DNA of 63,931 bases, the filler included, from Hausera hauseri (taxonomy: Eukaryota), in assembly GCA_046269625.1 (NCBI GenBank). It is 12 parts of 12 records of this genome, joined end to end, with 100 filler letters (N's around TTAATTAATTAA, not from the genome) between each part and the next. Parts side by side here need not be neighbours in the genome. Positions count along the whole stretch, not along the records: positions 54,297 to 59,748 come from JBJURY010252292.1; positions 59,849 to 63,931 come from JBJURY010771982.1; 10 more parts are not named here. One strand, given 5' to 3'. A program made the translations under genes and the position numbers. Below the pieces are notes generated by a model. The model had not been told where the DNA came from and made no database searches. It saw only the letters and a list, made by a program, of their open reading frames with translations. Shown piece by piece: positions 16,005-63,931 of the stretch (the first letter of the stretch is position 1; each line of letters starts with the position of its first letter).

Positions 16005-16104
16005 GTCAGTTTCTTTTTCATATTTATATTACGTAGTTTATATGCAGTAGATTCACTATTGGATTTTTACTGGAGTAAATGAAACATTGCTTCATTTTAG
16101 CTCA

Positions 16105-18637: not shown

Positions 18638-19427
18638 GTGGGTTATTTACTAACTAATGTGGATAAAAAACTGCATTCGAATACTATTGGAATATTTACT
18701 CATTATCAAATAGAAAATGTTTTATAATATATGATTGAATAAAATGTCACACAGGTGCAACAATTCTCATTGACTAGTTATGCAGCATTACAACATATAA
18801 AACACGGTTTGTGTGGCCACTGGCATCCATTTTGTGAAATGACGAATACATTCCATTCAGTAACTGCACTGAGGACGGATGATGCGGCATTATTGCGCTA
18901 ATTGATGAAATATTATAGCTAATATTGATTTTCTTGTTTAATTGTATTATTTAATTTCAAATATCAAATCAATTCGCAATGTAAATAATTAGATGTAAAT
19001 ATTTTACAACATTTTACAGATAACTCATGGCCATTTCAAAATTGTGTTACTCTTGTCATAACAAATGGAAACAACATTCTGACTGTCCAATGTTTGTCTA
19101 TAAATGGAAATGTTTATTTTGTGAAATGGTGGCTCATTCACTGGACTTGTTTTATTCAGTGAAAGTTTTCAATTGGTACTAAATATGACACAATATGTGA
19201 TTATAGAGTCATCTAGAAAGACGAGGATCTCATTATTATCCAATGAAATGACCTGAATATTGGAATATTTATAAAAATATGACAGAAAATGGCGACCAGT
19301 CATTTCAAATCCACTTTTGTATAACAAATAATAAAATATTTCACATAAATTCGTAAAAGTAATGTAATAAACAAATCAGATGTTTAACCGAATTTTCTTA
19401 GGTGTCAACATCAAAATAAATAATCGC

Positions 19428-34800: not shown

Positions 34801-37800
34801 TTTACTCTCGACGGTACTGTCTTGTATGTCATTGAATGATTTTACAGTATTTCGTGGTTGTACTTCTGGCTGCACAAATTGTTTAGATTTCCCCGTACCA
34901 TTTACAGATTTGTAATGTGATATATTTACTATTGTCTCTTCGATCGACGTCGATTTTCGAATTTTCAAACCGGGTGCTATTTTAGTTTCTGTAATATCTT
35001 CCTGTGTTTTACTCAATGTCTTTACAATACCTTTTGGTTCTTCTTGTGCAGATTGCTGAAGCTTTGTTACATCTTCAGTAGGAATTTGACTCTGCGACAG
35101 TTGTCCAATCCTTTCATCGTTTGCACGTGATTTACGAGGTTTCTTCACTGGTGGTGTTTGCCTTTCAACCGTATCAGCTGGCGTTCCTGTGATTGACAAC
35201 TCTGTCTTCGAAGGATTCACACCAGAATCTGAAGGAACACCATTTGCAGTTATAATACGAGATATTGTTTTCCTTTCTTCAACAACCGTTATTTTTACCT
35301 TAGAATCATTGTCATCTAAGTCGGTCATTTCATTGGATTTCATACTCCCTGGACGTTTCGATGTCTTTCTTTCTTCCTTTGCTTTCCTTGGTTCTACTTT
35401 TTGGACTTCAGTAGTACTCATTCTCATACGATGTATATCATCTTTCTTATCGGCATTTGGAACCGCATGTCCTGGTTTGGCCACTAAATTCACATCATCT
35501 GTTTTATTCATACCGATTAGTGTACCAGATTCAGACGATTCTGAGCTTACATTTCGATTGGTTACTTCAATGACTTCAGTCGATGAAACTTTCTTTTGAA
35601 TAACCAGTCCTGCACTTCTTGGTGGTTCGTCAACATTTTCCTTTTGTGGACTTGGCTGGGTCGAAGGCGATTTTTGGACTTTACTCGGTTTTTTAATATT
35701 TTCCTTGGAGTTACTTCTTTCAGATTGAGATGACTTTTTCTTCACTAATGATGGTGCCGGTGCCGTGTGTTTGGAACAATCGTGCTTACGAATCACTCGC
35801 TGTTCACTTCCTGAACTAAATGAATCTAACGATTTGGATCTGGGCTTTGATATCTTTTTAGCTGACATTTTAGGTGATTGTATGTCTTTATTATCAGTCA
35901 TAGCACTTGGTTCGGATATTTTTTCAGCAATGTTACTAAGATAATAGTCTGTTAATGATATTGGTCTCCCTTGACTATTCCATTCAATGACAATCTGATC
36001 CAATTGCTTCATTTTGTCATTTATGATTTCCTCGATGACTTCTAAACAAACTAAATTCAGAGAACTCGTTTTCTGTGTAATAGACACCACAAATGCACAA
36101 GTTCTCAACAGTTCGTTCTTCAGTTCACCTATAATCGCTGCAATTTCGACCATATCCCTCGTACCACTATCAATGTTCACACTTATAATCAATTCAACGA
36201 TTTCTGCGATCATTTTCCTGGCCTTCTTTATGGCACCATGCCAGTTATGAGTATTCAATTCAGGATCCTCGAAAAGTTTTGTTATTTTCTTTTCCACCGA
36301 ATACGGTCTTGATAATGGATTCTTACTAGTTTTCAACTCAATCATCATTGTCTGAACAATTCGCTTTATGATGCATTTTGGAAGAACTGCTGGGGAACTG
36401 TTGATATTTCTGTTTTTCCGCTGCATGGATGACGATGCCAATGAACTAGTAGTTATGTTTGAATACGGTGTGTCAACGGCGTTATATTCTGATTTCATAA
36501 CGGGTATAACATTTTGCATTTGCGATGAATGCATGGATTGGATTGTCTCCTGAACACCAGATGGAATAAAAATTTCTTCCGTTGATTTACTCATTCGCCT
36601 AACATCTGGGATCGTTGGTTTCATAGATGCAAAATAATTTATTGACTCCTCAGATCCCATTGATGGAATTTTAGGGGTCACATTACTCTCGACATTCTTC
36701 GTAAAACTCAATTTTCCTGTTATAGCTAATGATTGTCTACTGAAATCATCGGCAAAATCATTGATGTCTTTTAGAGTTTCGGTGAATTCAATAACCGATG
36801 GCCCTTTCGTTCCATCAGTAACTAATTCCTTGATATTTTCATAAATGAGAGACGTGGCTTTAGCGAGTCCATCATCTTCAGTAATTATATCCGGTACTTT
36901 AGATGTATCTAACAGAGATTTCTTCGTACTTGGTAGTCTTGATAGTTTTGGAATGCCCATGGATACCTTTGATTCTTCATCACCCTTTAGTTCATCCTGA
37001 GACATCTTACTTCCGGTCTGAGGTGCAGACTTTGATCCGGGTTGTTGTTGTCTGTTTGGTTTTGGATCATTCACAGGTAACGTTTTTGTATCATCTTTCT
37101 TACGTGAAGATTTTATCGTTGATGATGGCTTAGTTGTCTCTTCTGAAACCCTACTTAGCATTCGTGACTGTTTTAGATCTTCAACAGGTATTCTCATAGC
37201 AATCTCATCAAAAAACGTCACATGATCGTCAGCATTTGGTAATCGTTTTTCTGGATATTCCTTTAATGGTCCAACATGGGCAAATCGCTCACTGTCATCA
37301 AAATCGACTATTCGTTTGGACACCTCCTGTCTCATAGCATTTTGTTCTGCTTCAATGAAAAGCTTGTTTAGTTTTTCAGATGATTTTGTTCTGGGTAAAT
37401 TGAAGAAAACATTTGGTTTTTCACCCGGTGATACATGAGATTTGTATTCGGATGATGATTGATCTGTCGATTCTTTTGATTCAGTGGATCTTCTTGATTT
37501 GATGTTCACTTGTGCTTTTGAGGGTACGATATCGACTGAAACATTTGACTCACCCGAAACGGAAATATTCGGGTTCTCGTCTTTCGATGATGGTTTTGGC
37601 GATTTCCTTGACTCAGAATCTTCTGTTAATAATGTCTGTTCCTTAACTGATGTTGCATTAGCTGATGGATCGGAGATAATTACATTGGGTTTATAATCTA
37701 TCAGAGATTTTTCTCCATATTTCTTGGTTGACAACATATTCCGAAGTTTTGAAGGTTTCTTTTCATTTTCGAGTGAGTCAAATTCGGCAGCAAATGGTAT

Positions 37801-39261: not shown

Positions 39262-39659
39262 GTTTTTTCAACAGATCTAATAGAAATATCTTGTCACAAT
39301 CCAGAAGTACTTCAATGTTTCGTAAAATAACATGGTGATGATTAAAATTTCTCAGTAGCCAAATGGCTATTTACATGGAATTTCATATTATGTTGTTAAT
39401 CAATATTCTATGTATGATACGAACTGCATTGTTGGTGGTTTAAGTACAATTTAGAACTGTTGTTGAACATATACAGTGAAAAACCAATATGTTACCCGTG
39501 TCAATTTAGATTGATATCCAGAAAAAGTTTTTAGATGTAGAGTTAGAATGAGACATAATAATAAATATTGTCTTCAACTGAACAATATGCCATTAATGTT
39601 TATCATTAAATAAACGGCTTCAGTTCAAAATCCAAAAGTATTTTTAACAAGACAACGAA

Positions 39660-41129: not shown

Positions 41130-41890
41130 GCAGGGTAGCATATAGGTAATATATGTGATATGTGTAATACATAGGCGATATGTATAATATAGGCATCAAT
41201 TGGGTAAAAAATATAGGTATGTTATAGATAATTATGAGTAATATGCGCTTAGAGTGAACTAAATAGGTGCATAGAGTTAACTATATAGCCGTATAGAGTT
41301 AGCTAAATAGGCATATAGGGTTAAATATATAGTTGTATAGTTAATTAAATAGGGTCAAACAATTACACTCATATTATTTAAATAATACCCATATTACTTG
41401 TATTTTACCCACACAGACAAACACACGCACACAACATATGATTTAGACAATTCATTTCCAAAATTGCTTCATTTTGCAGGCACACACAGACTAACACACA
41501 CTACCTATATTTTAGCTATATATTCCTCGCATATTACCTATATATTCTGTCCCTATTCCTCATATTTTACCAATATATTTTCCTATACTCTTATATATTC
41601 CTCATATTTTCCATATATTTCTCACATATTCCCTATAATCCTCATACATTCCTTTCTTTATCCCTTTTTGTTCCCTATATTTCTCACATATTACCTATAA
41701 TCATCATATATTCCCTTGTTATTCCCTTCTTATTCCCCATAATCCTGTTATATTTTTAATAATCCTGCTACATTCATTTCTCATTCCTTACTATCCTCCA
41801 TAATCCTCATACATTCCGTCCTTATTCCCTATAATCCTCCCATAATCCTTTAGCTATACCTTTCCCATATAGTATTTTACACACATACAC
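41130..41890. repeat. Low-complexity subterminal region with inverted strand bias (G/A-rich, then C/T-rich)
   Basis: tataggtaatatatgtg on the left versus catatattacctata on the right; degenerate ataatcct/ttccctat units. Confidence 0.6.
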
Positions 41891-42087
41891 ACTATAAAAA
41901 GTGTTTGCATTACGCCAAAGTTTTATTTATATGAAATAAATGTGTTATGAAATTAGTTCGCCTTATCCTACATAGTAGTTACTTAGTTTTACTTGGCTTT
42001 ATCCTATATCCAACATCACTTGATAAAGAAGACAACACGATATTTTATACAAGATTTATTAAACAAAGAATAACAATATGTACACAT

Positions 42088-45000
42088 TTACAATGCCACA
42101 TGTCCGTGAGGTAGTGTGCTTATTCCATAACCCAGGATCTGCCTTTTGTCGTCCATCCAATCTAGGTTCTTCTTCTGTAATGTTACTGTCTCAATCTTAT
42201 GATCCCTAGACTGGATCCTTTGCATCTCCGATATGATGCGAGGCTGCTCATGCAGAACTCTCACATAATCTACAAAAGTTATCTTCTTGGCTAAGGTAGC
42301 CCTTTGAACGCCCTTACCTATCTTTTTGATCCGACCGCATACATCAATTGCATACATTTTGAACCTCAGAGCTACAAATCTCAAGATGATTGCTCCATTC
42401 ACCTCGTCTTTAAATTTCCCAAGGACTTTCTTGTTGGTAATTGAATAGTTGGGATGATCATTAGGATAGTCAGACGTATCCATATGCTGTGCCAACTTAG
42501 CAAAGTCCTCATAAATGTCCTCAGTATGGATCTGATAGATGAAACTATCAGTATCCATATACATCAGCTGTATGGACTTGAATGTGGGAACCATGATGTC
42601 ATAGTGGAATTCGTACATTAGGGTCTTTGACAGGTCGAAGATTGCCATACCAACACATATGGGCTTGTTGAATTGCAAGGATGTTTTCAGCACATGGAGG
42701 CTGACCAAGTTCTCCGCATATATGATGCTCCTGTGGAAATTTGGCTTGGCAATGAGATTCTTTGCCCGCTTCCACTCAGAGACGAGTTCAATGTTGATCC
42801 ATTTGCAGAGATTTTCCATGGTCTTGCCAAAAACGCTGTTCTTGTAGAGCTTAAACTGTTCCTTCTCAAAGTCGTTCTTGGCATTGGTCCGCAGCTTTGT
42901 ATTGAGATCCAATGCATAGCTCTTTATCGTAACATCCCTGAAACTCTCAAAGACATCCGTCAGAAGCAACACGTCCATCTTGAGATATATGTTGCTGTTT
43001 TCTCCTAATGTTCGTCATTGGAATGCATGCCAGACGTTCTGAGCACGCTGGTAGTCCATATCACTGATATCGCAATCTGAGAGGATATTGTAAAAGTCCT
43101 TCTTGGCCGGCAGTGAGTTTCCAGAGTTTCCCGTGATGTTATATAGTCATAGGAAAACACGCCCTTCCTCTTGACGAGGTCAAATGTAGTGGGGAAGAAC
43201 CGCTTCGTCTCCTTGAGTTCTTCTGCAGGCAGGTTCTTCACTAAACTGTCAAGTGAAGACGAAATAAAACGGAAACTGTCTACGAAGCGAAGCCTGATTC
43301 TTCCAACATGCTTCGTAAATGTGATGCATTTTTCCTCACTATTAGGGATCACATCAATGTTTCCTTCAATGCAGCCCAGTTCCCGAACAATGATATGAGA
43401 ATCATATCCACTGAGATTATGGAACATTACAGGCACATATGTATATGTTTTGCAACGTAGATTGCAATTGTTGCATGCCGCGCCTCGATATTTGTCTGTA
43501 AAATGGAAATGATCCCTGATTTTATAATTATCCTTAGTGAATGATTTGGAACACAAGTAACATGCTGTTGCCTTGCGCCATTCTTCTTGCATTTTCGACA
43601 TGTTCATTGTATCCTTATGCTGCTGCTGCATATCTCCAATCCTATGAGCCATATCTTCAAATAGTTTCATGAAATGAGCTGCTGCGCCTGGACCCCTAAA
43701 TAGATAGGGTTCACTGTCCAGTCCTTTGGCATACATGCAATATGAGGAGAGCTCATGATGTTGGTATGCCGTTGTGCTGCTATGTTGTGGATTAGGACTG
43801 CAACTCTGAACTGGGTGCAGGATCGCTTCAAAGTCGTAATAGATAACTATTGGGACCTTGATCTTCTTCTCGAACTCCTTGAATTCGATGTAGTCCTCTT
43901 TGGGAAATTCTGGCCTGATACAATAATTATTGTTGCAGTATATCTTGTGTTCTTTCAGCTTCTCCACAGCTACATCGCCGCTGAAACGGGACAAGCATCG
44001 TTTACATATTTCTATTTGTCCATGATGTTTCGTAATTTGTGATCTGACTAGCCGCTCAAAATATTTGATCGAAACATGATGCTTCTTTTCTCCATCGTCT
44101 AATAGGACCAGATCCCTATGATCTTCCAAATTAGCATCGCACATCTGCAGGGGATAGAATTTGCCTCCTCGTCCAAAATTCGAGATATTGATGGACATGT
44201 TGACTTTTCCAAATTTTTTGACATCATCTAAGGATGGAGGGAACTTGATACATTGGAAGTCATAGTTGTGCTGCACATCTTTATATAGCTAAACCCCTGA
44301 AGCATGATTTTGATCCGTTACGAGTATTGATAGAATGGCATACATGAAACACATGTTGTCATTGTTATGGTCATTGACACATGCATTTTTATTAGCGATC
44401 CAATCAGGGAACTGAATATATGAACTGCCCCGAATAGGAGAGTACTTGTGAACATACACAAGCAATCTCTTGATGGTTGCCAGAGTCCATCCGCTTTTCT
44501 TATATTGACTCTCCCCGGCTTCACGGATCAGCTTCTCGTGCGCCTCTTGCATCCATTCTGCTAAATTGGTGTTTTCCAATATGGGTCTATTTTTGGTCTT
44601 GAAGGCCCTATTGGATTCTTCGGCATCAACATTGATGTACGTGGCCTCCAGTTTCATATTCACTTTAAGGGCTTTGAGCTCCGCCATGTTGTTTTGAAGA
44701 ATTTCCTCTGTCTCGTCCTTTTTTATAAAAGGAAGTATTGGAGGGTTGTTTGCCCAGTTGCCTCAATAACATATCTGCAACATTTTCTCTTTAATGCTGC
44801 TGCATCAACTGGCCGCTGCCTTTGGCTTTTTGATGGAGCATCTTCTGCTGCTGCTATGCGTTTTAGTCCTGCGTCGGACCTTGCTGCCAAAGCAGGCTGT
44901 ACAACTAGCTGTGCTGCCGAAGCAGTCTGTTCTGCCAAAGCAGGATGCTGCTCTTTAAATATGACCTTCTTTGACTTTGACTTGAAGTCTGTCAAATGGG

Positions 45001-45208: not shown

Positions 45209-45694
45209 AGTGGTATGGAATATTTGTTTTTCAACTTGGTGAAGGAAATGAGGTGTTATTTATGGGCATTTTAAGAGTCTTCATATTTGGTCTGGCACAC
45301 TACCTCACATATAGAGCATATATACTACTCAGCCCTGTTGTATAGATGGCTGAAGTATTTCTGTATAATATTATGTCAATTTTCAGGCTCGTGGATTTGA
45401 GCCAAGCACTGTTTGTATAGATTGCACATCTAAAAATCAACCAATTATTCGAGGAGCACAAATAAAAATCTCACCATTTGTGGAAGTGATTTGTAAATAA
45501 TTAAACATAGCCATATCAATGCATACTGCCTCATTTATAAATTTTTTTAAATTTTCGAACATTCTAGAACACTTTGTTTTAATGCATCAAATAANNNNNN
45601 NNNNNNNNNNNNNNNNNNNNNNNNNNNNNNNNNNNNNNTTAATTAATTAANNNNNNNNNNNNNNNNNNNNNNNNNNNNNNNNNNNNNNNNNNNN

Positions 45695-46818
45695 ACATAA
45701 TGAAAGTGTTCATCATTCTCAAGAATAAGTAAGTTCACTACAGAACCATTCGGATTTTTGCTACGGTATAAAATATCTACGAATGGATTTTTCACTATGT
45801 CCTCATCAAAGTCAACATCATCCTCATTATGATACAAGAAGACATTAATTGAAAGCTGCGGATTTTGCCTCTCAAATTTAGGAATATTACAAATTTTCAT
45901 TGGCATGTCTTCTGCGGAATAATTTAGTTCACCTAAATAAGGAGTGTAATTGCTTACTCTATTTCTATGAGAATAATCAAAGAGAGAATATTTTGTCACA
46001 GCTAGTATGGAGTACAGGAAGCACAAATGGTCGTTGTTCTGCACATTAATAACAGCTGTTGCATTTCGTAAAGCTTCAGGTGTTTGAATGTATGATCTGC
46101 CAGACAAGTAGGGTAGTGGGCTTGTCTTAACAATATGGAAACAATACTTCAAGATCTTCACTATTTTCCACCCACTACCCATTTCTGCAAAATTCTCAAT
46201 TTGTTTACTTAAACTATCAGCTACTGTTTGCGGGTAAGAATCCTCATATGGTACTGCTCTGTGTGAAATGTATGCCTCTTTGAAATCACCTTCAGAATTC
46301 TCAAAAAGAATCTCAAGACCATATTGAACCTTACAAGAGGAGAAACGAGACGTGTACATGTGAAAGGTACTTAGTATTTCCTCAGGTGGTCGAACAGAAA
46401 TAAGATGGTCGGGCGCCACATCAAAACACAAACGCACATAATTATTTCCAAGAACAGTATGCACATTAAGTTTTGTGTTATTAACAGTTTGTTGTCTTTG
46501 TTTCTTCATGGACTGATTAGGCTGGTTCTGTGTCCTTTTGTTTGTCTGTTTAACTGGTTGGGACGTTGATTGTTGGTTTGCTGATTGTTGGAATGGCAAT
46601 TGTTGTTCCATGACAAATTGTTTCGCCAAGTTTATCATTTCCTTGTGTTCTCGAACAATATTCTTTTTGGGTTTGGTGAAGAATGTGAGGTGCTGATGTT
46701 GGTGTCGGAATGTTGGGAATGTTTGACCTGATATGACATAACAGGTTGGACAAACATAAAATTGTCGTCCATCGATTTTTGTACCATAATATTTTGCCAT
46801 GGTTTCCTCACATGACAC
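45695..46818 (-). CDS. Polinton pPolB lineage A, intact N-terminal about 375 aa, cut by contig end
   Basis: Open frame homologous to 6221-7330 (MAKYYG, ENFAEMGSGWK, GRSYIQTP, INVQNND.LCFLYSIL, FERQNP.LSINVF). Confidence 0.92.
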
Positions 46819-47127
46819 TGGTGAATGAATCTCAGCAGTGCAGTAATTGAAATTGCAGTTCTATATAATATTAAATAAAGAAATGAAGAAAAATAAACAT
46901 ACCATTTTGTAGTTATAATTTGAAAGTCACTTAAAATGTATATCAACACTTTATTTATACTAAAATTTAACCAATAGAATTTAACCAATCAAAAGTAGCG
47001 AATGAAAATGTAGGATATAAATAGAATAACATAAATAATATGTTGTGTTTTGCAAATAGTTACTTATAAAGTAATGAAAGACATTTATGATACAAAGACA
47101 TTTATTATACAAATATTGTACAAGAGA

Positions 47128-47598
47128 TTAAATGTTTTCTTCATCATCATCTAACCATTTTTCGAGACCGACTTTTGTTAGATTTGTAATCTGAGTGACT
47201 GCAATAGCTTGAGCATTGTTATTGTATATTATAACTCTGTTACTTTGTAACCGACAATCTGTACATTCATGTAATCCAGAGTCTATGAAACAATTAATGC
47301 ATGTCTGATGCGTCGTATTGAAGCAACCGTATATTCTGACAGTGTATCCGATCGAATTGCCGAAGCAAAGTGGACATTCATTGTTTTGGACTTCCTTCAG
47401 TTTGTTGATGTTACATTGCGATACATGTTTACCATTTGAATTGAAGATGTCCACAATGTTATTTTGGTTTCGACACATGGGACATGACTGTTTGTGTTTA
47501 GACCATTGCACAAAACAGTTCAGACAATGATGGTGGGTGCATCCAAGTAAACGGATGTTGTAGGAAGTACAATTGTTAAGACAGATTGAACAAAACAT
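47128..47598 (-). CDS. Tandem double RING-finger protein (putative E3 ubiquitin ligase), Polinton accessory gene
   Basis: CSIC..CTHHHCLNC..W..CPMCR, then CPLC..GC....HQTCINC....CTDCR. Upstream of and co-oriented with pPolB. Confidence 0.85.
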   Translation of the reverse strand: MFCSICLNNCTSYNIRLLGCTHHHCLNCFVQWSKHKQSCPMCRNQNNIVDIFNSNGKHVSQCNINKLKEVQNNECPLCFGNSIGYTVRIYGCFNTTHQTCINCFIDSGLHECTDCRLQSNRVIIYNNNAQAIAVTQITNLTKVGLEKWLDDDEENI

Positions 47599-47865
47599 GT
47601 TGATGAAAAAAGAGAAATTATATTTGATTAATAACAGATATATAGTAAGTTGTAACCAATAGAAATGTGTGTGTGTGAGCTAAATAGTTTTGTTAAAGAC
47701 TTGTATTAATGTCTTATTTAGTTTTGTCTTGTATAGTTATATTAAGACAGGCAGACACATACAAATAAGGAAAATTGTCTACATAGACAAAACTATTGTC
47801 ACAACATTATATTTTGTTGATCAAAATATTTAATATAACACAACGTAATTTGTATGATTTGTTAA

Positions 47866-47969
47866 TATTTTACATTTAATATATTGCAATATAATAAACA
47901 TATTACGTTGCGGTATATTTTTCATTTAATATATTGCAATACAATAAACATATTACGTTGCGGTATATT
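47866..47969. repeat. 50-bp tandem duplication between divergent genes
   Basis: catttaatatattgcaata(t/c)aataaacatattacgttgcggtatatt twice. Confidence 0.9.
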
Positions 47970-48033
47970 ACGTAGAGTATATAAGGAAGTGTTTGTCATT
48001 TGTTTGTTAGTTTTACAAAATTCATTTGAACAA

Positions 48034-48216
48034 ATGTCGAAAATTACAATATCTGAAAAGGTAAAGCAACAAATGATTGTTGCCGGAATGGAGGAACAAA
48101 GAAAGGAATATATACCAGAAAGAAGTGATGATAGTTCGTCAGTGCAGATACCGGATTATGAACCGAGGGACATCGATGTAGCAAAGGATAATGGTAATGT
48201 TGTATGTCAATATTAA
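48034..48216 (+). CDS. Short acidic ORF, possibly the frameshifted 5' part of the downstream gene
   Basis: MSKITISEKVKQQMIVAGMEEQRKEYIPE...DYEPRDID; overlaps the 48204 ORF. Confidence 0.4.
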   Translation: MSKITISEKVKQQMIVAGMEEQRKEYIPERSDDSSSVQIPDYEPRDIDVAKDNGNVVCQY

Positions 48217-49211
48217 ATATAATACATAATATTTTAGAAACAGCAACAACAACAACATTGAAAGAAAACTTGACACAGGAAGTCATAGCCGCAGCGCAAG
48301 CAACTGGTAATTTAAATTTTATTTTACAAATGAACTTGAAGGTACATTTAGATACTGCAGTGGACTTGGATATAATTCGAGAAGATTTGGAAGTCAGCGA
48401 TGATGATTTCTTATCGGATATATCATCAGTGCAAAGAACAGAAGAAAAGGAAATTGTAATGAAGAAGCCATCAGTTGTTTGTGAGGCACGGATAACAAAA
48501 GAAAGGCGGCAAGTTTTGCAGAAGGCGTGCGAAGCAGCGAATAATTCTATGGAAAAACAAGAAGTGAGAAATAAGTTAATTGAGAAGTGGAATAAGGAGT
48601 ACCATCGAAGGCGCAAGGCACCAGTTAGTTTGAAAATGAAGGAAGTGCCGATGGATTGTGTCAGTGACCCGAAGCTTAGTGTAAACCTGAATAAGCGGTT
48701 TGAAATTAAGCCAAAGGTGAAAGAAACAACAGATTCGGCAAAAATGGTTCAGATGAAAGAACATAATAGGCGGTTGGAAGCAGAATTGAAGAAGGTGAAG
48801 TTGCAGAACACGCATTTCCAGAGTAGGCTTGAAGAGCAAGCAAAAGAAATTTATAGGTATATCAAAATGTTAAACAAGGTGAAGAAGAATGTGGAGACGC
48901 AGACGAATGTTGAGGTAAAGGGGAAGGTTGTTGGTTCATGTTTTAGTATTGCCAAGCTGGTGGAGGGAAAGCGAAAGGATTTAGGAATGCAAACTGAAAA
49001 GGTGAATGAAGAAGATAGGCGTTGTATGATGAGAAAGTGTGGTATACAAACGGAGAAGGTAGATATGGTTGGAATGTCTACACAAACCAGTCTTTGCAGT
49101 TGTGAAAAGGGGGTGCAAACGGATGATGATGAAGGAAAGAAGAATGATGGCAAGATGACGACTGTGTACAACAATTGTCGCATTGTACACAAGAATTATT
49201 ATTATAAATAG
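48204..49211 (+). CDS. Coiled-coil protein with five TQT/xQT (LC8 dynein light chain-type) motifs, Polinton accessory gene
   Basis: Coiled coil KEHNRRLEAELKKVKLQNTHFQSRLEEQAKEI, followed by KNVETQT, DLGMQTE, KCGIQTE, GMSTQTS, EKGVQTD. Confidence 0.75.
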   Translation: MSILNIIHNILETATTTTLKENLTQEVIAAAQATGNLNFILQMNLKVHLDTAVDLDIIREDLEVSDDDFLSDISSVQRTEEKEIVMKKPSVVCEARITKERRQVLQKACEAANNSMEKQEVRNKLIEKWNKEYHRRRKAPVSLKMKEVPMDCVSDPKLSVNLNKRFEIKPKVKETTDSAKMVQMKEHNRRLEAELKKVKLQNTHFQSRLEEQAKEIYRYIKMLNKVKKNVETQTNVEVKGKVVGSCFSIAKLVEGKRKDLGMQTEKVNEEDRRCMMRKCGIQTEKVDMVGMSTQTSLCSCEKGVQTDDDEGKKNDGKMTTVYNNCRIVHKNYYYK

Positions 49212-51024: not shown

Positions 51025-52930
51025 CAATTGACGCATTTGAAGTATAACAGTTGCTCTCATGAAGGTCTCATGAGATACAGTATATAAAATCTGTTGCTTT
51101 GTTAGTAATATCAGAGGCCTTAACAAATTATAGAAAACTATAAGGACAAAAAATTGTCTTCGAATTTCACGCAAAAATACCTGGAATGACCAATGTGCGT
51201 CAATTGACTCAAGCAGCCGGACAACATAATCATTACATATATTAATGCTCTATGCCATATCAGTTTCTATCTAAAAATATTTTGCGGAAACTATCAAACA
51301 TAGTTCAGAACTAAGACATCTATTTTTACTTGGTACAAATGTTTGCCAGATACTTTCCGCAGACTGAACGCATGTATTTGTCACATCTGGTAATTGTGTG
51401 GTTTGCGTAACAGTTTGTTTTGATCCCGCAGTTTACGCATTTTGACAGTTTCTCATCAGGTATCTGTGTATCTGCCGAGGTGTTTCTTGCCTGCCTTAGC
51501 TCCTGAGACAGCTGGTATAAGAAATGCCTTCTTGAGATAGAACTGCTCGTCTTCTTTTTGAATATCATCCATGCATTTATTGATGCCAAATCCAGAATAT
51601 TGCAGAAAATGGACAATTCAATCGTCAACAAGCAGCCTTTGTAGACATATGTCGGCACATGGAGTCCAACATATCAACACCACACTTGTTTTTATTATAG
51701 TATAGAATACTTTCAGTCTTCATTTTTCCCTCAGACTGACAAACCGCTCCTTTATGAAGTGTGGACAGAACTGCGACTGACATATGTTGCTTTGTCTGAT
51801 ATCGAACAAGATTCATTGATCTACTAGCATAGAAAGTCGTCTCGTGCAGTCTCAACTTAGTTTAAGGTGGCAATTCTCTGCGATTGAACCGTATGTTGAA
51901 ACCTAAGGAAGTACGTTTTGCAAGCAGTTTCTAATCCAGATCACGACTGGTGAAAAATTATTGAGAGCAATGTTGTAGCTGCGGTTCATATATGGTTCTG
52001 TCAGGGATATAGCCGCATGTATTCCCATACTACCGACTCTGTCGTCATATTTTGTGGTGTATAGCTTGTTTTTCAGACAGTATTTTGAATTCAGTTAAGC
52101 GAGTACCCTAAACTTGATACCAAATTTATCAGGTTTATTTGACACGTACTGCGTGAACTAGCATGTAACCTTCGTTGCTGCTCGTCTACAGTAAGTGATT
52201 CCTGTGGTACGTAGCTTTTATGACTATTTTCGACAAAGCGTGACAACACCCATGTCATAAGACAAATTTATCATTATTTCAGCATAACGATTTCTAGACA
52301 TAATATCTCGAACTGCTGCATATTCCTAGGTTTCAGACCATAACATAATCATGGGAAAGTTTTAGGCATCCATTAAACTTCTTAGATCAGTAGTCCGATG
52401 AACGCCTCTAATTCCTCTTCTGTTACTTCCCATAATGGGCCTGACATCCGGACAAATTCAACTGTGCACCGCTGAAAATGACGTAGAAACCCAATATCAA
52501 TTATGAGCTTTCAATTTGCGTCTCTAAATTACAACAATGTGTCACGCCACCTTTTGCAGTAAAGACGTTCTGTGATTGCAATCGACCACATGCTTCACGC
52601 TCTGATTTCAGATTGTCATTATCCGTTCGGAATTTATACCCAAGCAATTGTCTAAAATGCTTCTGTGATGGTAAAGGTGTATCGAAATTTGTAATGGAGT
52701 AGTTCATGGCAACTGGAATTTCATTACAGATGTGAGGTGCATTAATGTAATGACTTTGTTTGTTTTTATTTCAATATTTTCGTCGATTTTTGGTATTTAC
52801 AAGATACAAATTCAGTCTGATAAAAGTTAAGTAACCGTTGGATGAATGTTGATTGTTTCTACAGATCATCATCATCTGACTCATAACTGAAGAGTCAGAT
52901 GAATACAACCACAATTTCTAAATTTCTGTG
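51025..52930 (-). mobile_element. Second piggyBac (PGBD4-like) relic, heavily decayed
   Basis: QYVSNKPDKFGIKF, YYNKNKCGVDMLD, NILDLASINAW, ISRRHFLYQLSQEL, Cys-rich tail. Acidic N-terminus near 52870; subterminal gcgtcaattgac motifs at 51025 and 51198. Confidence 0.85.
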
Positions 52931-54296: not shown

Positions 54297-56152
54297 AACA
54301 TATATCGTTCTGCTCTGGGAAGTATTTGTTCCTCATGAGTTTCGACGTAAGGGTAATATTCTTCTTCTTTAATGTTCGATAGCCATTTTTCGTCACCATA
54401 AATTTCAAGATCGTAATCCAAGTTGGTCAGAGGAATTTCGAATTGTCTGGTGTAATTAAGTGTTGGTTCATGACGGAATAAGTTTCTTCTTCCATGTCTA
54501 CGCTTGTATATACATATAGCAATAATCACTGCTATAACAAGTATAATATTAGTGGGTAACACGATTACCATTAGCAAGAGTTTATGGTAATTTGATTGTA
54601 GTCCCTGTAATGGCTCAACTAATGGTAACATGGTTTTTAATGTTTCGTTGTTCTTAGAAAAGTCTGTGGATATTTTAAAAACAAATCTTCCTCTCTTCAT
54701 TATTTCATTGAGTGTGGGGAATTTGAATAATAAATTTACTCCCTTTTTGAGTGTAGTGACTTCGAATAAGGCAACTGTTTTCAATCTTCGTAGTGGATCA
54801 TAATAAGGCAACTGATGATGGGCTAGATAAGGATAGCCTGATATTAATTGGGCGCACTCGACGTGTGTGCTGGTAATTAAGAAACAGGCGTCATTTGTAT
54901 TTTCCAATGTGACTATAAAATCAGGATCTGGCAGACTGAATATTACACGATCAGGTCTTACTTGTACATAAATTTCCAATGGTTTAAAGAAAATAAACTG
55001 GATGCGTTCTGGTGCTTGCCTTATTCCTGCTATTAGGTATGGAATCTGATTATGAACTGAGTAATGAAAACTGCTTAACCAAAAGGTATTTGGACAGGAT
55101 GATTGGAGCTGCAGCGTGAGAAGTATCTGTCGATTATTTCGTTTCGTGCACGATATTGGAGGTCGGGGGCTTGTGACCTCTATGTTATAAAGCTCGTCAG
55201 TATATTGTTTTGCGGTGCATGAGAGAGCATAACTAACTTTACTAATTCGTAGTGCTACTACTAGGATTCCTTTATCATTGAATATCTTTGCTCCAATACG
55301 TTTATTATCTTCGATTGAAGGCGCACACGGTATCATTGGTGCTTTTCTTTCTCTTCCAGTTACCGTACGTCGCCATATAGCATTTACAAGGCGAAACATA
55401 GCGAAGATCAATAAATATTCTTGGTCAGGTCGTGTATATATGCAAGTTGATCGATTATGTTCTCGGAAATAGTAAACATCATTTTGTCCAAAAGTTGTAT
55501 CAGCATATCGTGTAGTTATTTGCATTATTCTTCCTTTTGGAATCTTTCTATCCCATTCAATTGGTAAGCATGGCTTTTTATAATCGGGTTGGCCTATAAA
55601 TACTCTATCTTCTAGGAATAATGTGTCGATTTTGGTTAACTCTTTCTGTTCGGGTGAATTGTCCGTTAGAGATAACATAACGGTTTTTGGTTTTAGTGGT
55701 ATCGTTATTTTGAATGTTCGATCTTCATAGAGAGGTGAATTTTTATCCTCTGACATATGAATTTGCACCGAATAAATAGTTCCAGGCATAACTTTACAAC
55801 AATTTTCCCCATAGAAAGACGTAGTCGTACATAGCATTTTTTCTTCTCTATATAATATTAACGTTCCCCAGTTTTCGTTCATTGTTTTATTACTATTTAT
55901 CCCAATTCGTGGATTGAGGAATCTCAGGGATAAGCAGTTTCTTGTGTGATTATATTGAATGTACAGATCTCCTGGAGTAATACCTTGTATATCCCACGGT
56001 TCTATTTTTGGGATTCTCTTCAATTATTTCATGAAATCCGAAAACGTATTCGATGATACATTTGTTGTTTTCATTGAGTTTACTGTTGGATTTGTAAATG
56101 AATCTGGTATGCAACAGACCAATATACCCATTGGTAATAACATTCTGCGGGG
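54297..56152 (-). CDS. Module 2: signal-like PRRMLLPMGILVCCIPDSFT, paralogous ectodomain with an extra domain, TM, Tyr-rich tail; one stop at 56024
   Basis: YNHTRNCL..CCKV.PG.IYS, YALSCTAK..YNIE..NRQILLTLQ..CPNTFW and PERIQFIFFKPL match module 1. TM LLLMVIVLPTNIILVIAVIIAICIY + KRR. Confidence 0.75.
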
Positions 56153-58027
56153 TTATGATTCGTGTTTAATCCGTGATAGTTGGGTCTGGACAGGTCTTTT
56201 AGTTTTTCGGTGGCTTTTAACGTATAATAATACTACCCACACTAATATAAAAATAAGAACAACAATAGGTGCAACTATTATTAGTAACAAATGTCTATCA
56301 TCTTGTTTTGTTGTCTTACTGAATGTTTGGTTCTTCACTATTGTCTTATTTTCGTCTGGTATTACTTGCCGTTCCATATGGGCATCAAATCGTTTACCGG
56401 GCGTAGTTATATGACACAATGCTATCGTTTTTTGTTGGTATATTATTTGTATAATGTAAAGACATTGGGGTTTCAGACTGTCACAACTAATAAATGTATC
56501 TTTAAATAGTGAACATTTAACCGTATCATCATCAAATGATATCATATAATTGTTATTAGGGAAGTTAAACATGGCATTTCTGTCATTTACTTGATAGGAA
56601 ATATTCAAAGGAGTAAATCGAATCGTTTGAATATGTTCAGGAAGTTGTAGACCGTCATAAGATGCATGTAATGGTGAATTGAATGTATTAAAATAAGTTG
56701 TACTGCTCCAAAACATATTGAGACACGGAGACAGCATTTGCAAGGTCATCAATATTTGTCTGTCATTACCTGACACACAGATTCCCGAAGGTTCCATACT
56801 GGAATATTCTATATTATAATCCCCATCATTTGTCAATTTTGCTGTGCATGTTATTGTATACGTGACATTTTTTGTTCTAGGGGTGATTCTCATAATTCCA
56901 TTGGAATTGTCTACATCTGCATTTATTGGTCGATCATATTCGGGTGTTAAACGACATTCATCGTTATTTTCTTTAATGGGTTTGTCCGCTTTTACTCTTG
57001 TTATAATTGGTTTGATAGTTGTTGTTCCTGTAGGTATCGTAATAAAGATAGTTTGTTGGAAGGTGATATTGTGGCCAAATCCATTTGTTCGCATAGTGAT
57101 TTGATATAATTGAAAGGTAAGGGAATAAGTGTATCCTTGAGTAACCAAACAACATTTATTATCCTTTAATTCCGAATGCACGACAGAGATAGGCCTATTT
57201 TCTTCAAACATTGTTATTGCTTCTCTTTCTTGACCACTCAACCCTCTTACATGAGTTATCATTAAGCATTTTCTCTTGGAATTATAATAAATTGAAAAAA
57301 CCTTAAAAACAAATCGACTATTATTATCTAAATCCAAACGTGCATTTTCTAATAATTTTGAATAATCTTGATATACAGTATGCAGTTCCCGCCCTTGGTC
57401 GGAATTTGAGATCAGGGTTTGATTCAGATAAGGTGTAGTGGTTGTTCGTGCCAAAACATTGGTCATGCATAACGCTAATATACATGAGAACAAAGTAATT
57501 CTTCCAAACTGCGGTTGTACATTCTGGTATTGTTGATTTACCGAATCACTTTCTTCATCTTGTTGGTTGTTCGATTTAAAGATGTTCTTGCTCGCGATAG
57601 GTTCCTTACTTGCTGTAGAGTTTATATTCAGGCTATTTTTATCGAGCTGAACCTCTATCGCAAGATTCGAGTTATTCAATTCATTGTGATTTACGTCGGT
57701 GGTAGAGTTCTCTTCTTCTTCTAATACTGGTTTTAAACTAACTTTATTCTCTTTGGTAAGTTTTGGGAGGAGTTCAATTAATTTGTCGATATTCTCTTCC
57801 ATTCTATTCCAAGCTTTCTTATTTCTGGTAGGTCCTCTGAATTTCTTTTTCTTTCTTAAATAATGCTTTATATTAATCGTATGCATCGCCATTTCTATCA
57901 AGTACCATTGGTAAGGCAATTTTGTCGACAATGCTGCTCTTTGCGGTATTTTAGCCAAATATTTTATCATACGTGCCTCATCTCCCGATAATAAATCTAC
58001 TTGGGTTAGTCCTAGATAAGCCATCAC
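56153..58027 (-). CDS. Module 1: internal signal (FGRITLFSCILALCMTNVLA), Cys-containing FN3-like ectodomain, TM (LLLIIVAPIVVLIFILVWVVLLYV)
   Basis: Hydrophobic segments, several N-x-S/T sequons, paralogy to module 2. Confidence 0.75.
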   Translation of the reverse strand: MMAYLGLTQVDLLSGDEARMIKYLAKIPQRAALSTKLPYQWYLIEMAMHTINIKHYLRKKKKFRGPTRNKKAWNRMEENIDKLIELLPKLTKENKVSLKPVLEEEENSTTDVNHNELNNSNLAIEVQLDKNSLNINSTASKEPIASKNIFKSNNQQDEESDSVNQQYQNVQPQFGRITLFSCILALCMTNVLARTTTTPYLNQTLISNSDQGRELHTVYQDYSKLLENARLDLDNNSRFVFKVFSIYYNSKRKCLMITHVRGLSGQEREAITMFEENRPISVVHSELKDNKCCLVTQGYTYSLTFQLYQITMRTNGFGHNITFQQTIFITIPTGTTTIKPIITRVKADKPIKENNDECRLTPEYDRPINADVDNSNGIMRITPRTKNVTYTITCTAKLTNDGDYNIEYSSMEPSGICVSGNDRQILMTLQMLSPCLNMFWSSTTYFNTFNSPLHASYDGLQLPEHIQTIRFTPLNISYQVNDRNAMFNFPNNNYMISFDDDTVKCSLFKDTFISCDSLKPQCLYIIQIIYQQKTIALCHITTPGKRFDAHMERQVIPDENKTIVKNQTFSKTTKQDDRHLLLIIVAPIVVLIFILVWVVLLYVKSHRKTKRPVQTQLSRIKHES

Positions 58028-59944
58028 CCTATTAATCCATCTGGTGTCATAAACTACTTTACTATCTATCCCGTATTTTTGGGCAAGTAGATCTATTCTC
58101 TCATCGCGTAATTGTACTAAACGGTAGTAAATCTCCAGCGTGCTGGCTTGTGTTCAATTCTTATTTCCTTAGGTTGATCCTTATTTCTGTTGTAACTATA
58201 GAAAAGAATCTTTATCATGTATTGACGAACTTCTTCTGTATCTAAATCAGGTGTCAGTAAAAAATTATTGATATGGAAATAATCCACAACTCGTTGTAAC
58301 GTACTCTGTTGGTAATATTCATTAACACTATAAAAGGAAGTGACATATTGACTTTTAATCTATGCTACTACACTATGGGATATGTTGAGGTGGTCTGTTC
58401 CTAACTCCCACAACACTTGGTACACCCATCTATCCATTTCTGGAGTTGGTTCGGATAGGGCCTCTAGACCCTTGTATAATAGTCTAGCACAAATAAGTCT
58501 ACTGTGGGTTACCTTGCTTGCTGGTGTCAAAGTATCTAATAATTTAATCTTACAACACCTTAGATTTGGCGTATTAGGATTTTCTTCGGCACTGATTCCT
58601 CTGTTGACCAAGATATCTGAGTAATTATCGAAGCATCTTCTCATCATGTCGTAACACTCGAAATCAAAACACACGATTGGATTTCTTACTCTATATCTCT
58701 CCATGTCATAGAGATAGTTCAACATCGCCTGTCTTTCTCCGGTAATTTCAACATTCTCTTCCGCTATGCTATGAATGAATAATCTTTGCCATTCTCTTTT
58801 TATAGTTTGTTCCTTTTCCCATTCTTCAACGTTGGCATAATATACACTCCAGACAGAGTCGCATGTTTTATTAATTTCTTTTTGGGCTTTTTTCAACGTT
58901 ATCTGTTGTTAGGATTCAGTTCCTTCTGTTGGTTGATTAAATCCTTTATTAAAATCCCTAATTATGGTTTGAGTCATTCGCTTATATCTGGAACACCTCA
59001 AATAGCCTTGAAACTCTAGTTTGGTATTGTTAAATGCTTTAATACACAAATACATTTGTGCACATTGCTTTATAGTAGGCTTATGTATTTTTATTTGGTG
59101 TAATAGGCGAGTCGTCCAAATTTTATTTCTGTATTCTTCTTTACCATAGCCATATCTATGTGCTGAGGCCACGATTTTCTTATCATAATACTCCCGTATT
59201 CGTAATCTATAGACAGCTTCAGGGTATTGGCTTCTTTCATAAATTTCTTTTTCCATTTGTAAATGCGGCATATCACTATTCATCCTCGTTCGTGTATTAT
59301 AAAGGTATCTACTTTGTGCTCTTAATCATTCTCTATCAAGATGTACTATTCCTATCGCTAACTTGTCCATAAAGTATCCATCATACAATATTTCTACTTC
59401 ATGCCGAATTTCTTCCAGTAATTGTAAATTTGATTTTACTAATGTCTTATAATACTCTGTTCTTTCCATAATGTCAGTAACTGCTTCGATTAATTCTATC
59501 GTAAGGGGTTCGTCTTCTAGTCCGGCCTCCCATAATAACCAATCTATCCATATATTTCTCTTATATTCCTCAGTATTGTTCTCGATATTCTGAATTTTAT
59601 GAGTCCACAATCCATTAATTATATGATCGTTGCCGCAATCTTTTATTAATTCGTCAAGGATTTCTTTATCATGAATTGAAATTTTTAATCGTTTAGGCCT
59701 ATGTAGGGCTGTATTAAGTAACTGATATAGGGATATGTCCCATGTTATNNNNNNNNNNNNNNNNNNNNNNNNNNNNNNNNNNNNNNNNNNNNTTAATTAA
59801 TTAANNNNNNNNNNNNNNNNNNNNNNNNNNNNNNNNNNNNNNNNNNNNGCTGCCTGTATTTCATACCCAATACATTCTATCTATATAATTCCTATATCAC
59901 ATACATACTCCCCGTGTATTACCTGAATATTACACATGTTAGCT

Positions 59945-60330
59945 AAATATTACTTGTATTTTACACACATGCGCACATACATACATATCTGAGCTATACA
60001 TTTTCCAAAGTTAGTTGCATTTTACATACACCCACACAGGCAAACACACAGACATATATCTGAGCTCTACCTTTTCTCACGTTAGTTGCACTTTATATTC
60101 ACAGACGTGCACATGCACACCATATATCTTAATCATTCATTTCTCAAGTTACTCGCATTTACCCCCACCACCACTCCCCACACGCACACAAACAACTCAC
60201 AAGACATCTTAATTATTCATTTCTCGAGTTACTCGCATTTTACTCACACACAGACAAAACCCACACACGAGACATATATTTGAGCCAATTCATTTCCAAA
60301 GTTGATTACATTTTATATGCACACACACAC
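59945..60330. repeat. Degenerate CA-rich tandem repeats (about 60-70 bp), subterminal to lineage B pPolB; related to 41395-41460
   Basis: Recurring gcattt(t)ac...cacacagaca...catatat.tgagc / ttaat.attcatttctc.agttactcgcattt. Confidence 0.7.
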
Positions 60331-60527
60331 TATTAAAGTGTTTAGGGTTATGCCAAAGTTATATTGTTATGAAATAAATGTGTTATAAAATTATTTGGTC
60401 TTATCTTACATAGTAGTTATTTAGTTTTACTTGGCCTTATCCTATATCCCACATTACTTGATCAAGAAGATAACACGATAGCTCTATACAAGATTTATTA
60501 AACAAAGAATAACAATATGTACATATG

Positions 60528-63500
60528 TACAATGCCACATGTCCGTGAGGTAATATATGGATTCCATCACTCAGGATCTGCCTCTTGTCATCCATTCAAT
60601 CTAGGATTTTCTTCTGTAATGTTACTGTCTCAATGTTTTGATCCATAGACTGGATCCTTCGCATCGCTGATATGATGTGAGTCTGTTCATGCAGAACTCT
60701 CACATAATCCGCAAAAGTGATCTTCTTGGCTAAGGTAGCCCTTTGAACTCTTTTGGCTCGCTTCTTTACCTGACCACTTACATCGATGGCGTACAGTTTT
60801 GATCTCAACGCCACGAAACGGATGATGATCTTCCCATTCACCTCGTCTTTAAATTTCCCAAGGACCTTTTTGTTGGTAATTGAATAGTTGAGATGATCCT
60901 TCGAATAGTCAAACGTATCCATATGCTGTGCCAACTTAGCAAAGTCCTCATAAATGTCCTCAGTATGGATCTGATAGATGAAACTATCAATATCCATATA
61001 CACAAGCTGCATGAACTTGAATGTGGGGAACATGATGTCATAGTGGAATTTGTACATCAGGGTCTTTAACAGGTCCAGTATTGCCATACCCACATATATG
61101 GGCTTGTTGAATTGCAAAGATGTTTTCAGCATATGGATGCTGACCAAGTTCTCCGCATATATGGTGTTGCTGTGGAAATTGGGCTTGGCAATGAGCTTCT
61201 TTGCTCGCTTCCACTCAGAGACCAGTTCGATGTTGATTCTGTTGCGGATATTCTCCATGATCTTGCCAAAAACGCTGTTAATGTACAGCTTGAATTGATC
61301 CATCTCAAAGTCGTTTTTGGCATTGATACGCAGCTTAGTATTGAGATCTATGTATGGCTGCAGCCACATGGACTGGTTAAACTGCAGGGCTCTATGGACC
61401 TTAGTAATGCGGAGTCCATTCCTGACTGCCTGATGGAGATTTATGTAGTGGACTACATACCTCTCCCTACTATCCAGATGGCAGAGCAGCTTTCTATGTT
61501 TTCCATGAGGCGTAGACTTGCTCTCAGGGACGAAAGGCAGCTGTTGATGCCTTGTGTAAATAAAAGCCGGATATTCCATATCTACCTCCAGTATGTAGCC
61601 CGTATCTCCACTGGGATCCGGGTCCAGTATAAAAATGTTTTCAGTATGCTCGACCCACTTGAAGTTATCATATAAAAATGGGATGCTCATTGCACATCCA
61701 TACAAGTTGTTGGCATCCAGGTATGATATATATGAGGATTCCTGGGATGGATCATACTAGGCCATACAATTGTTGTTAACTTCACTATACCGTTGTCTGG
61801 TCTGGCATATTCTGCTTCTAATGCGTCTCTCAATCATGAGGATCATGTCGTAATCCTTTATGATCTGCAGCCTGATACCTGTATAGCGCAGCATAGCTGC
61901 CAAACTCGTCCCTGGAGTCGAAAAGAAATGAGCTGGATCCAATGTGTGGCTCTTTATCGTAACATCCCTGAAACTCTCAAAGACATCCGTCAACAGCAGC
62001 ACGTTTGTCTTGGGGTACATTTCGCTGTATTCTCTTAATGTTCGGCATTGGAATGCATGCCAGACGTTCTGAGCATGCTGGTGGTCCTCATCATTAATAT
62101 CGCAATCACAGAGAAATTGTAAAAGTCCTTGGCCGTCAATGAGGTCTCATCCAGTGTTTCCCATGAAGCTGTATAGTTATAGGGAAACACGCCTTTCCTC
62201 TTGACGAGGTCAAATACAGTGGGAAAAAACCGCTTCGTATCCTTGAGTTCTTCTGCAGGGAGTGTCTTCATTAAACTGTCAAGTGGAGACGACATGAAAC
62301 GGAAACTGTCTATAAAGCGAAGCCTGATTTTCCCAACATGCTTGGTAAATGTGATTTATTATTCCTTACTATTAGGGATCATATCAATGTTTCCTTCAAT
62401 GTTTCCCAGTTCCCAAACAATGAAGTTGGAATCATAGCCACTGAGATTATGGAACACCACAGCACATATATACATGTTTTGCAGAGTAGATTGCAGTTGT
62501 TGCATGCCGCACCCCGATATTTGCCTGTAAAATGACAATGATCCCTGACTTTATGATTCTCCTTAGTGAATGATTTGGGGAACAAGTAACATGCTGTTGC
62601 CTTGCGCCAGTTTTCTTCTTGCTGCTTCGACATGCTCATTGTATCCTTATGCTGCTGCTGCATATCGCCAATCCTATGAGCCATATCTTCAAGTCGTTTC
62701 ATGAAATGTGTTGCTGCGCCTGGACCCCTGAATAGATATGGTTCACTGTCCAGTCTTTTGGCATACATGCAATATGATGAGAGCTCATGATATTGGTATG
62801 CCGTTGTGCAGCTATGTTGAGGACTAGGAGTGCAGCTGTGAGTCGGCCGGAGAATAGCTTCAAAGTCACAATAGACGACAATTGGGACCTTGATCATTTT
62901 CTCGAACTCCTTGAATTCAATATAGTCCTCCTCGGGAAATTCTGGCCTGATACAATAATTGTTTTTGCATTACATCTTGTGCTCTTCAAGCTTGTCCACT
63001 GCAGTGTCACCGCGAAAATGGGACAAGCATTGTTTACATATTTCGATTCTTTCCTTATGTTTCGTAATTTGGGATCTGACTGGACGTTCAAAGTTCTTTA
63101 TACAGATGAAATGCCTCTTTTCACCGTCATCTAGTAGGAGCAGATCCCTATGATCTTCCAATTAAGAGTTACATATCTGCAGGGGATAGAATTTGTCTTC
63201 ATCATCCAATCCAAAGATGTTAATGGACATGTTGTTGATTCGCCCCAATTTTTTGACTTCATCTATGGATGGCGGGAATGTGATACATTGGAAGTCATAG
63301 TTGTGCTGCAAATCATTATATAGCCAAACTCGATCAGCTGCATGCTTTTGACCCCGTAGGAGTTTACATAAAATGGCATACATGAAACACTTGTTGTCAT
63401 TATTAAGGACATTGATACATGCTTTTTATTAGCGATTTAATCAGGGAGCAGAATATAGGAACTACCCCGCATGGGAGAGTACTTGTGAACATACACAAGC

Positions 63501-63931
63501 AATCTCTTGATGGTTGACAGAATCCATCCACTCTTCTTATCCTGGCTGTCATCGGCTTCATGGATCAGTTTAGCATGCTATTCATGCAGCCATTCTACTA
63601 TATTGGTGGTTTCAAAAATGGATATATTTTTGGTCCTGAAGGCCCTTTTGGACTCTTCGCCATCAACATTGACGTATGACCTCAAGTTTCATATAGACCT
63701 TAAGGGCCTTGAGCTCAACTATGTTGTCCTGGCGAATCCCTATTGTTTCTTCCTCTCTGTACTCCAGGAACTCCTTGATGGCTGTTTGACCAGCTGCATC
63801 AATGACATATTTGCGCACTTTTCTCTTTGATGCAGGAGCATTAACTGACCGCTGTCTTTGGCGTTTTGATGGAGCCGCTACCCCTGATGGGCCTGATGCG
63901 CATTTTAGTCCTGCAACTGGATGTGGTACTG
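60528..63931 (-). pseudogene. Polinton pPolB lineage B, second copy, decayed; retains motif A segment
   Basis: YLDANNLYG, GYILEVD, KLYINSVFGK, YMDIDS, GKFKDE, RDHCHFTGKYRGAACNNCN. Colinear with 42088-44900, including the 3' flank 60320-60530 matching 41880-42090. Confidence 0.95.

Follow-up and report, generated by a model that had tools for sequence, protein, structure and literature searches.

A decayed, many-variant polyprotein-type frame in Hausera hauseri with two paralogous membrane units and predicted beta-sandwich ectodomains

Introduction

What kind of genetic element places several receptor-like membrane proteins one after another in a single reading frame, and how would it release them? 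The question is raised by a piece of the genome of Hausera hauseri (assembly GCA_046269625.1, record JBJURY010252292.1), at positions 54297-59748 of a joined stretch of 63,931 nucleotides, hereafter the window. Positions are counted along the whole window, whose parts need not be genome neighbours. A preliminary description of the piece had proposed a decayed polyprotein with a soluble N-terminal region and two related membrane glycoprotein units, carried by a giant long terminal repeat (LTR) retroelement or an endogenous virus. We report here that the frame is real and that the piece belongs to a family of many variants, and we weigh what might have carried it.

Results

A coding path on the minus strand fills the whole 5,452-nucleotide piece, with five stop codons and one frame change, and is open at both edges. 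Frame A runs from 59748 to 58120 and includes three of the stops (TGA at 59328-59326, TAA at 58911-58909 and TAG at 58362-58360). Frame B, from 58153 to 54297, includes the other two, both TAA, at 56155-56153 between the membrane units and at 56026-56024 in the serine/threonine (S/T) stalk of unit 2. Both frames are open within the overlap, 58153-58120. The preliminary description had given the positions of the five stops and of the frame change near 58150 correctly. From the base composition, about 136 stops would be expected in each frame. When one change of frame is allowed, the best path meets just 5, whereas 200 shuffled sequences gave 115 on average and never fewer than 99. The 5.4 kb of coding path contain no intron, and the coding strand is rich in A (38-41% at most codon positions). 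The reading frame is real, well beyond chance, and the proposal of one decayed, intronless frame of polyprotein type is borne out.

The last 1,070 codons form two paralogous units, in each of which an internal signal is followed by three or four predicted beta-sandwich domains and then by a transmembrane helix with a basic tail behind it. Units 1 and 2 are identical at 65 of 192 residues (34%, E 5e-29), which upholds the notion of two paralogous type-I membrane units, with a topology that is predicted. By hydropathy, both transmembrane segments are strong, whereas of the two signals the first is good and the second weak; two further weak hydrophobic windows within ectodomain 2 also exceed the cut-off. 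Of the 21 cross-unit pairs among the seven domains, three beat 500 of 500 shuffles (z 5.6, 34 and 19), and unit 2 has the three domains of unit 1 plus one. The frame is the same on both sides of the unit junction, so that signal, ectodomain and transmembrane helix follow one another twice without a shift.

Unit 1 opens with a predicted signal at 57446-57508 (minus strand, as are all features of the path; hydropathy 1.89). It has no Met at its start and is for this reason internal to the frame, and its end carries small residues at -3 and -1, in keeping with the small-residue rule for signal peptidase. Ectodomain 1 (56300-57445) contains 11 Cys residues, seven N-glycosylation sequons and three predicted beta-sandwich domains (57026-57343, 56651-56968 and 56381-56653). 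It is followed by transmembrane helix 1 (56219-56290, hydropathy 3.58) and by a basic cytosolic tail of 21 residues that ends at the inter-unit stop (56153-56218). The predicted signal of unit 2 (56093-56143, hydropathy 1.76) is weak and begins with Met. The next segment, 54587-56092, comprises a short S/T stalk and ectodomain 2, with 12 Cys residues and four predicted beta-sandwich domains (55685-55978, 55331-55618, 55016-55333 and 54746-55018). Transmembrane helix 2 (54509-54580, hydropathy 3.04) leads into cytosolic tail 2 (54297-54508), which has a basic stop-transfer sequence and 8 Tyr in 70 residues, and is open at the edge of the piece. The single YxxQ motif of this tail is within chance. 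The S/T stalks of the preliminary description are present but short (in unit 2, 21% S+T over 38 residues). As for its suggestion that the frame continues past the piece, the path is indeed open at 54297, but an open frame is no proof of a third unit.

Relatives of the piece were sought in two public runs, from two studies and with two organism labels (shares of words 0.33 and 0.09), whose contigs were aligned at 80% identity. Matches amounted to 10,505 of 15,501,002 contigs and 1,585 of 9,551,390, respectively. They cover all 30 bins of the piece at 80-100% identity, mostly 80-95%. In the first run, X1, 740 contigs were at least 99% identical, 2,075 fell between 95 and 99%, 4,439 between 90 and 95%, and 3,251 below 90%. 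The aligned contigs listed are at most 510 nucleotides long; their depth is not a copy number, and they show many variants rather than dispersal over the genome. The first run may come from close to the source of the window; no RNA run was listed as containing the piece, which is uninformative on expression. From the contigs, the piece is one decayed copy in a family of many variants.

Stops shared by homologous copies had been named beforehand as the observation that would speak against a single continuous frame. At three of the five stops, the other copies differ in at least 99% of the depth in both runs: the first base has another letter at 56155, between the units (31 and 12 contigs), and at 58911 (23 and 4 contigs), and the middle base differs at 58361 (23 and 14 contigs). 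Stops at 56155 and 58911 are impossible in those copies, because the first base of the codon differs. Since the inter-unit stop is not common to other copies, the two units share one family frame. The preliminary description derived all the stops from sense codons by a single C>T change. This is uninformative, because stop codons all begin with T, and none of the three differences at stops in other copies is that first-base change.

These differences come from the 40 best-supported of 1,448 rows, chosen by support and not at random. Leaving out the frame-change zone, 37 rows remain, of which 8, 14 and 15 hit codon positions 1, 2 and 3 (p 0.31). Such an even spread is what one would see if this copy had decayed neutrally. 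Transition ratios across the family are 4.7 and 4.3, versus 28:12 in the 40 rows (p 0.054). The transition-richer changes of the family give a weak hint that the copies might be under coding constraint.

To what folds might the ectodomains belong? Two models were built, one of unit 2 alone and one of ectodomain 1 on a three-row alignment with two natural stretches of unit 2, and both are strings of beta-sandwiches. Tandems of fibronectin type III (FN3) domains came first in Foldseek (E 6.1e-4 for unit 2 and 1.7e-4 for ectodomain 1), with chains of ROS1, contactin and gp130 close behind and immunoglobulin (Ig)-like chains of CSL among them; FN3-rich receptors head these fold searches at 7-15% identity. 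The best viral structure match is likewise labelled FN3. In VIA-align, the unit 2 model matched an FN3 chain with a Z of 6.0 (root mean square deviation 3.1, 80 residues aligned), and the ectodomain 1 model matched CD45 with a Z of 7.3 (3.1, 80 residues), the best Z being 7.5. In the Foldseek search with unit 2, a herpes gB appeared only at rank 35 (E 0.088, with a low-confidence model). Based on these models, we consider it a fair prediction, of modest confidence, that the ectodomains are Ig/FN3-like beta-sandwiches and not a known fusogen fold.

Membership in a named receptor family is unsupported. None of the seven single domains matches any FN3 family among the Pfam fn3 profiles at E values up to 10, and the piece contains no WSXWS motif. 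FN3 domains have a strand motif, L-x-P/G-x-x-Y, and a pattern of this type occurs in five of the seven domains, but it was devised from these very domains and is hence circular. Class I cytokine receptors carry a C-x(9-10)-C-x-W pattern, and a Box1 after the transmembrane helix. Here, the four shared Cys residues are spaced 35/22/17, and no Pro-rich box was seen by eye after either helix. The idea of FN3-like ectodomains, for which fold models and Foldseek had been proposed as the check, is supported with modest confidence in that FN3 tandems come first, but no profile matches and other sandwiches tie. Similarly, the proposal of receptor mimics rather than fusogens agrees with the predicted folds, whereas the word mimic is a guess, as FN3/Ig sandwiches are generic and the motifs of class I cytokine receptors are absent.

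Searches for relatives of the membrane units among known sequences returned none in Pfam, PHROGs, PDB sequences, phage records or Rfam. In a collection of 5.8 billion proteins, none of 3,501 candidates for unit 2 and none of 1,739 among longer proteins was a relative. The Atlas gave no usable match for unit 2; in another search of it, three unnamed clusters at 0.75-0.80 stayed under the lead level. Searches of viral contigs (0 of 7, 0 of 30 and 0 of 6 candidates), of metagenome contigs (0 of 153 and 0 of 185) and, in one search, of prokaryote genomes (0 of 112) were equally negative. Two matches were judged to be due to chance, one to a helical repeat protein among 1.84 billion representatives (E 1.7e-4), the other a 39-residue seeded match in a Prevotellaceae contig, 1 of 77 candidates in the other search of prokaryote genomes. 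As these collections are poor in animal repeats, the missing relatives are weak evidence of novelty. Among the titles and abstract beginnings of the literature, no FN3 array in a mobile-element polyprotein was found.

Upstream of the units lie about 757 soluble codons. The first part of the long frame (58120-59748, 543 codons, interrupted by three stops and open where the piece ends) has a helix-like composition and contains no hydrophobic segment by hydropathy, in agreement with the soluble N-terminal region proposed earlier. It gave no above-cut-off match in Pfam and none in PDB sequences, the two collections searched with it. A stretch reading IVCFDFEC, reminiscent of exonuclease motif I, was unsupported on comparison with the window's own polymerase relics. 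In the frame-change overlap (58120-58153) both frames are open and no slippery heptamer is present; one match to the pattern lies at 58083. The soluble region before signal 1 (57509-58153) comprises a basic patch at 57800-57862 (48% K+R), 100 residues before the signal, and an acidic, Asn-rich linker. Within it, the depth of run X1 falls to 79-238 at 57960-57990, versus thousands nearby, which suggests that this copy differs there from most others in length or sequence.

The window itself consists of 12 parts of 4.0-10.7 kb separated by 11 identical spacers of 100 nucleotides (44 N, a 12-nucleotide word with stops in all frames, 44 N), which start at 5586, 10136, 15305, 20772, 24855, 29078, 39913, 45595, 49859, 54197 and 59749. 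With identical spacers between the parts, their order carries no linkage. At least three decayed copies of a Polinton-like protein-primed polymerase, 80-87% alike, are found at 41874-44872, 60310-63914 and 8898-9419, with a Pfam DNA_pol_B_2 match at 43008-44288, and 24956-25689 resembles a further polymerase relic. Related open reading frames (ORFs) at 45643-49211 and 6531-7519 (78% DNA identity) resemble the N-terminal part of Polinton polymerases; in the former region, a RING-finger ORF lies at 47128-47679 (Pfam E 1.7e-7) and a coiled-coil ORF at 48198-49211. Related GT-rich repeats of 70-80 nucleotides, at 59947-60332 and 41391-41520, lie downstream of both polymerase relics and are perhaps Polinton subterminal repeats. 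Broken ORFs on the minus strand at 1779-5000, without a match in Pfam or PHROGs, are reminiscent of Polinton major and minor capsid proteins.

Other parts contain transposase relics at 21100-24311 and 22576-22956, of the piggyBac type (DDE_Tnp_1_7, E 1.7e-13) and the hAT type (E 6.5e-6), and a region around 51300-52560 that looks piggyBac-like by eye. Host-like exons are represented by an RRM exon at 15762-16005 and several short EGF-repeat exons with small introns around 17900-18650. Taken together, the polymerase and transposase relics and these exons suggest that the source is an AT-rich animal, probably an invertebrate. Finally, an unbroken minus-strand ORF of 2,467 codons (31864-39267) is rich in Ser, Lys and Glu; it contains repeats near 34348-35055 and two helical blocks that look alike. 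It has no Pfam match, and none of 6,218 candidates was a relative.

Discussion

We propose that a giant retroelement-type provirus was the carrier and that the piece is its surface-protein module. Signal peptidase of the host would then divide the polyprotein into Ig/FN3-like type-I proteins. This explanation fits best because it accounts for both a layout with several membrane proteins in one frame and the many genomic variants, and we put its probability at about 0.5. The predicted topology starts with a cytosolic block, after which signal 1 would enter the endoplasmic reticulum, ectodomain 1 would be lumenal and helix 1 would anchor it. A cytosolic loop of 25 residues, signal 2, ectodomain 2, helix 2 and the Tyr-rich tail would follow. 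Going by hydropathy and the -3/-1 rule, cleavage after each internal signal might free two type-I glycoproteins. Duplication in tandem, with one domain gained or lost, may have given rise to the units, and their products might help in attachment to cells or dampen signalling by the host without being the fusogen themselves. The delivery of several membrane proteins by one frame is established for flavi-, alpha- and bunyaviruses. As delivery from one ORF is typical of elements translated from a single mRNA, the carrier probably replicates through RNA.

Several observations weigh against this proposal. By Pfam and motif patterns, the 5.4-kb piece contains no reverse transcriptase, RNase H, integrase, protease or CCHC knuckle, and no LTR, target-site duplication, capsid or viral core gene was found on it. 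The class of the carrier is therefore something that we infer and not something established. Thus, of the earlier proposal that a retroelement or virus displays several surface proteins from one ORF, the single ORF is supported by the junction stop not being shared, whereas the carrier finds no reverse transcriptase, integrase or LTR on the piece. Nor were LTR-like or terminal repeats found around the piece, or a decayed continuation of the frame across either spacer. The weakness of signal 2 and the Met at its start leave room for separate initiation. The stops at 59328 and 56026 do not appear among the 40 of 1,448 difference rows, nor does an indel at the frame change, and the kind of the two runs is unrecorded. 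The fold models are weak, with a mean pLDDT (predicted local distance difference test) of 34.8 for unit 2 alone and 55.1 for ectodomain 1, and sandwiches other than FN3 (C2, filamin and glycosidase Ig) tie in VIA-align. The host shows many Polinton-like elements with cargo genes in the same window. In the sections available of the two studies closest to our proposal, the env proteins are F- or gB-type fusogens (PMC6431247, PMC13524379), and the words 'fibronectin' and 'immunoglobulin' do not occur in the available text of the second.

The Polinton-like relics lead to the view that a large DNA element, either Polinton/Maverick-like or a large DNA virus that had integrated, carried the same decayed polyprotein as cargo and amplified it. 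Several parts of the window hold polymerase relics of this kind, 78-87% alike, one of them beside the RING and coiled-coil ORFs, and the adjoining part (59849-63931) is one such relic. However, a spacer separates the parts, so adjacency is no linkage; the piece has no similarity to any other part of the window, and pPolB, integrase, capsid and terminal inverted repeats are absent from it, being found solely on parts beyond spacers. Signal-peptidase polyproteins are not known to be a habit of such elements, and we regard this origin as unlikely. The order of basic patch, internal signal, glycoprotein, transmembrane helix, signal and glycoprotein would also suit the structural-polyprotein region of an enveloped RNA virus, nidovirus-like or large flavi-like, that became amplified after its integration. 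In that case the two units would serve for attachment or as companion glycoproteins, and a fusogen would lie further on. The A-rich coding strand goes with this idea, as does a planarian nidovirus with a 3' region of about 4,000 residues, predicted signal-peptidase sites, a Thr-rich stretch and FN2 domains, according to the sections of its description available (PMC6211748). Yet thousands of variants over a wide range of identity need an amplifying carrier, no RNA-dependent RNA polymerase or viral relative was found among the 1.84 billion representatives and the viral contigs, and the domains look FN3/Ig-like, not FN2. Such a virus seems a distinctly unlikely source.

A host multigene family would dispense with a carrier altogether. 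The piece would then be a pseudogene of an intronless, fast-evolving receptor or adhesion protein that spans the membrane four times, its signals uncleaved. Ectodomains of the FN3/Ig type and a tail rich in Tyr are host-like, many variants also arise when receptor families expand, and cleavage is only predicted. We nevertheless find this quite improbable, given more than 750 soluble residues before the first signal, 5.4 kb free of introns where the EGF-repeat exons of another window part are short, and no host relative among the 1.84 billion representatives. Lastly, the stops might be functional, delimiting separate tandem genes or serving programmed read-through. The stop at 56155 comes right after tail 1, four codons before the Met that opens signal 2, but in both runs at least 99% of the depth lacks it, as is also the case for two of the other stops, and we give this possibility next to no chance.

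If a giant retroelement-type provirus was indeed the carrier, a high-copy element with duplicated FN3/Ig-type surface proteins in one frame would exemplify a receptor-capture strategy known from large DNA viruses, and might be a source of new host surface proteins. One may go further and imagine an undescribed lineage of giant endogenous virus-like elements, at high copy in an invertebrate, that expresses captured and duplicated look-alikes of FN3-type receptors, one with a Tyr-rich, signalling-type tail, from one polyprotein and thereby rewires host adhesion or immune signalling. We advance this picture tentatively and with more doubt than belief. In any case, the piece stands for an abundant family of repeats, and the protein collections searched contained no match to its surface units.

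How does the piece compare with known systems? The gp130 family, ROS1/Sevenless, CD45, contactins and poxvirus cytokine decoys (PMC5998005) likewise combine a tandem beta-sandwich ectodomain, one transmembrane helix and a Tyr-bearing tail, but they are products of separate genes and not units of a polyprotein, and the piece differs from them in its profiles and motifs as described above. The planarian secretory cell nidovirus shares with it a single huge ORF, predicted signal-peptidase processing and captured extracellular modules, as well as the Thr-rich stretch. It differs, in the text at hand, in being an exogenous RNA virus with FN2 modules and no many-variant genomic family, and no sequence match was found (PMC6211748).

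Closer to a provirus are the errantiviruses and Atlas virus, the latter placed in BEL/Pao and equipped with a Gn-Gc-like env. In both, internal signals release membrane glycoproteins, in one case two, and in the GAG-ENV-POL errantiviruses env is part of the retroelement frame; their env proteins, as far as the sections available describe them, are fusion machinery of the F, gB or phlebovirus type, whereas the piece encodes two paralogous Ig/FN3-like strings (PMC13524379, PMC9094657). The nearest parallel that we can offer, by description and not by comparison of sequences, is with the Burro/GYPSM1 giant LTR elements (Ty3/Gypsy) of planarians, which, like Polintons, are piRNA targets there, as stated in the accessible part of the source (PMC8532177). 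The Burro env is a gypsy F-like fusogen, the extra domains are cytosolic (BIR, ankyrin, BCL2 and MATH) and no FN3 array is described in the sections available. Points in common are that Burro exists in thousands of copies, encodes a giant polyprotein of 4,873 residues with host-like domains and a membrane glycoprotein in frame, and has left decayed fragments with stops and frameshifts in a related species (PMC6431247).

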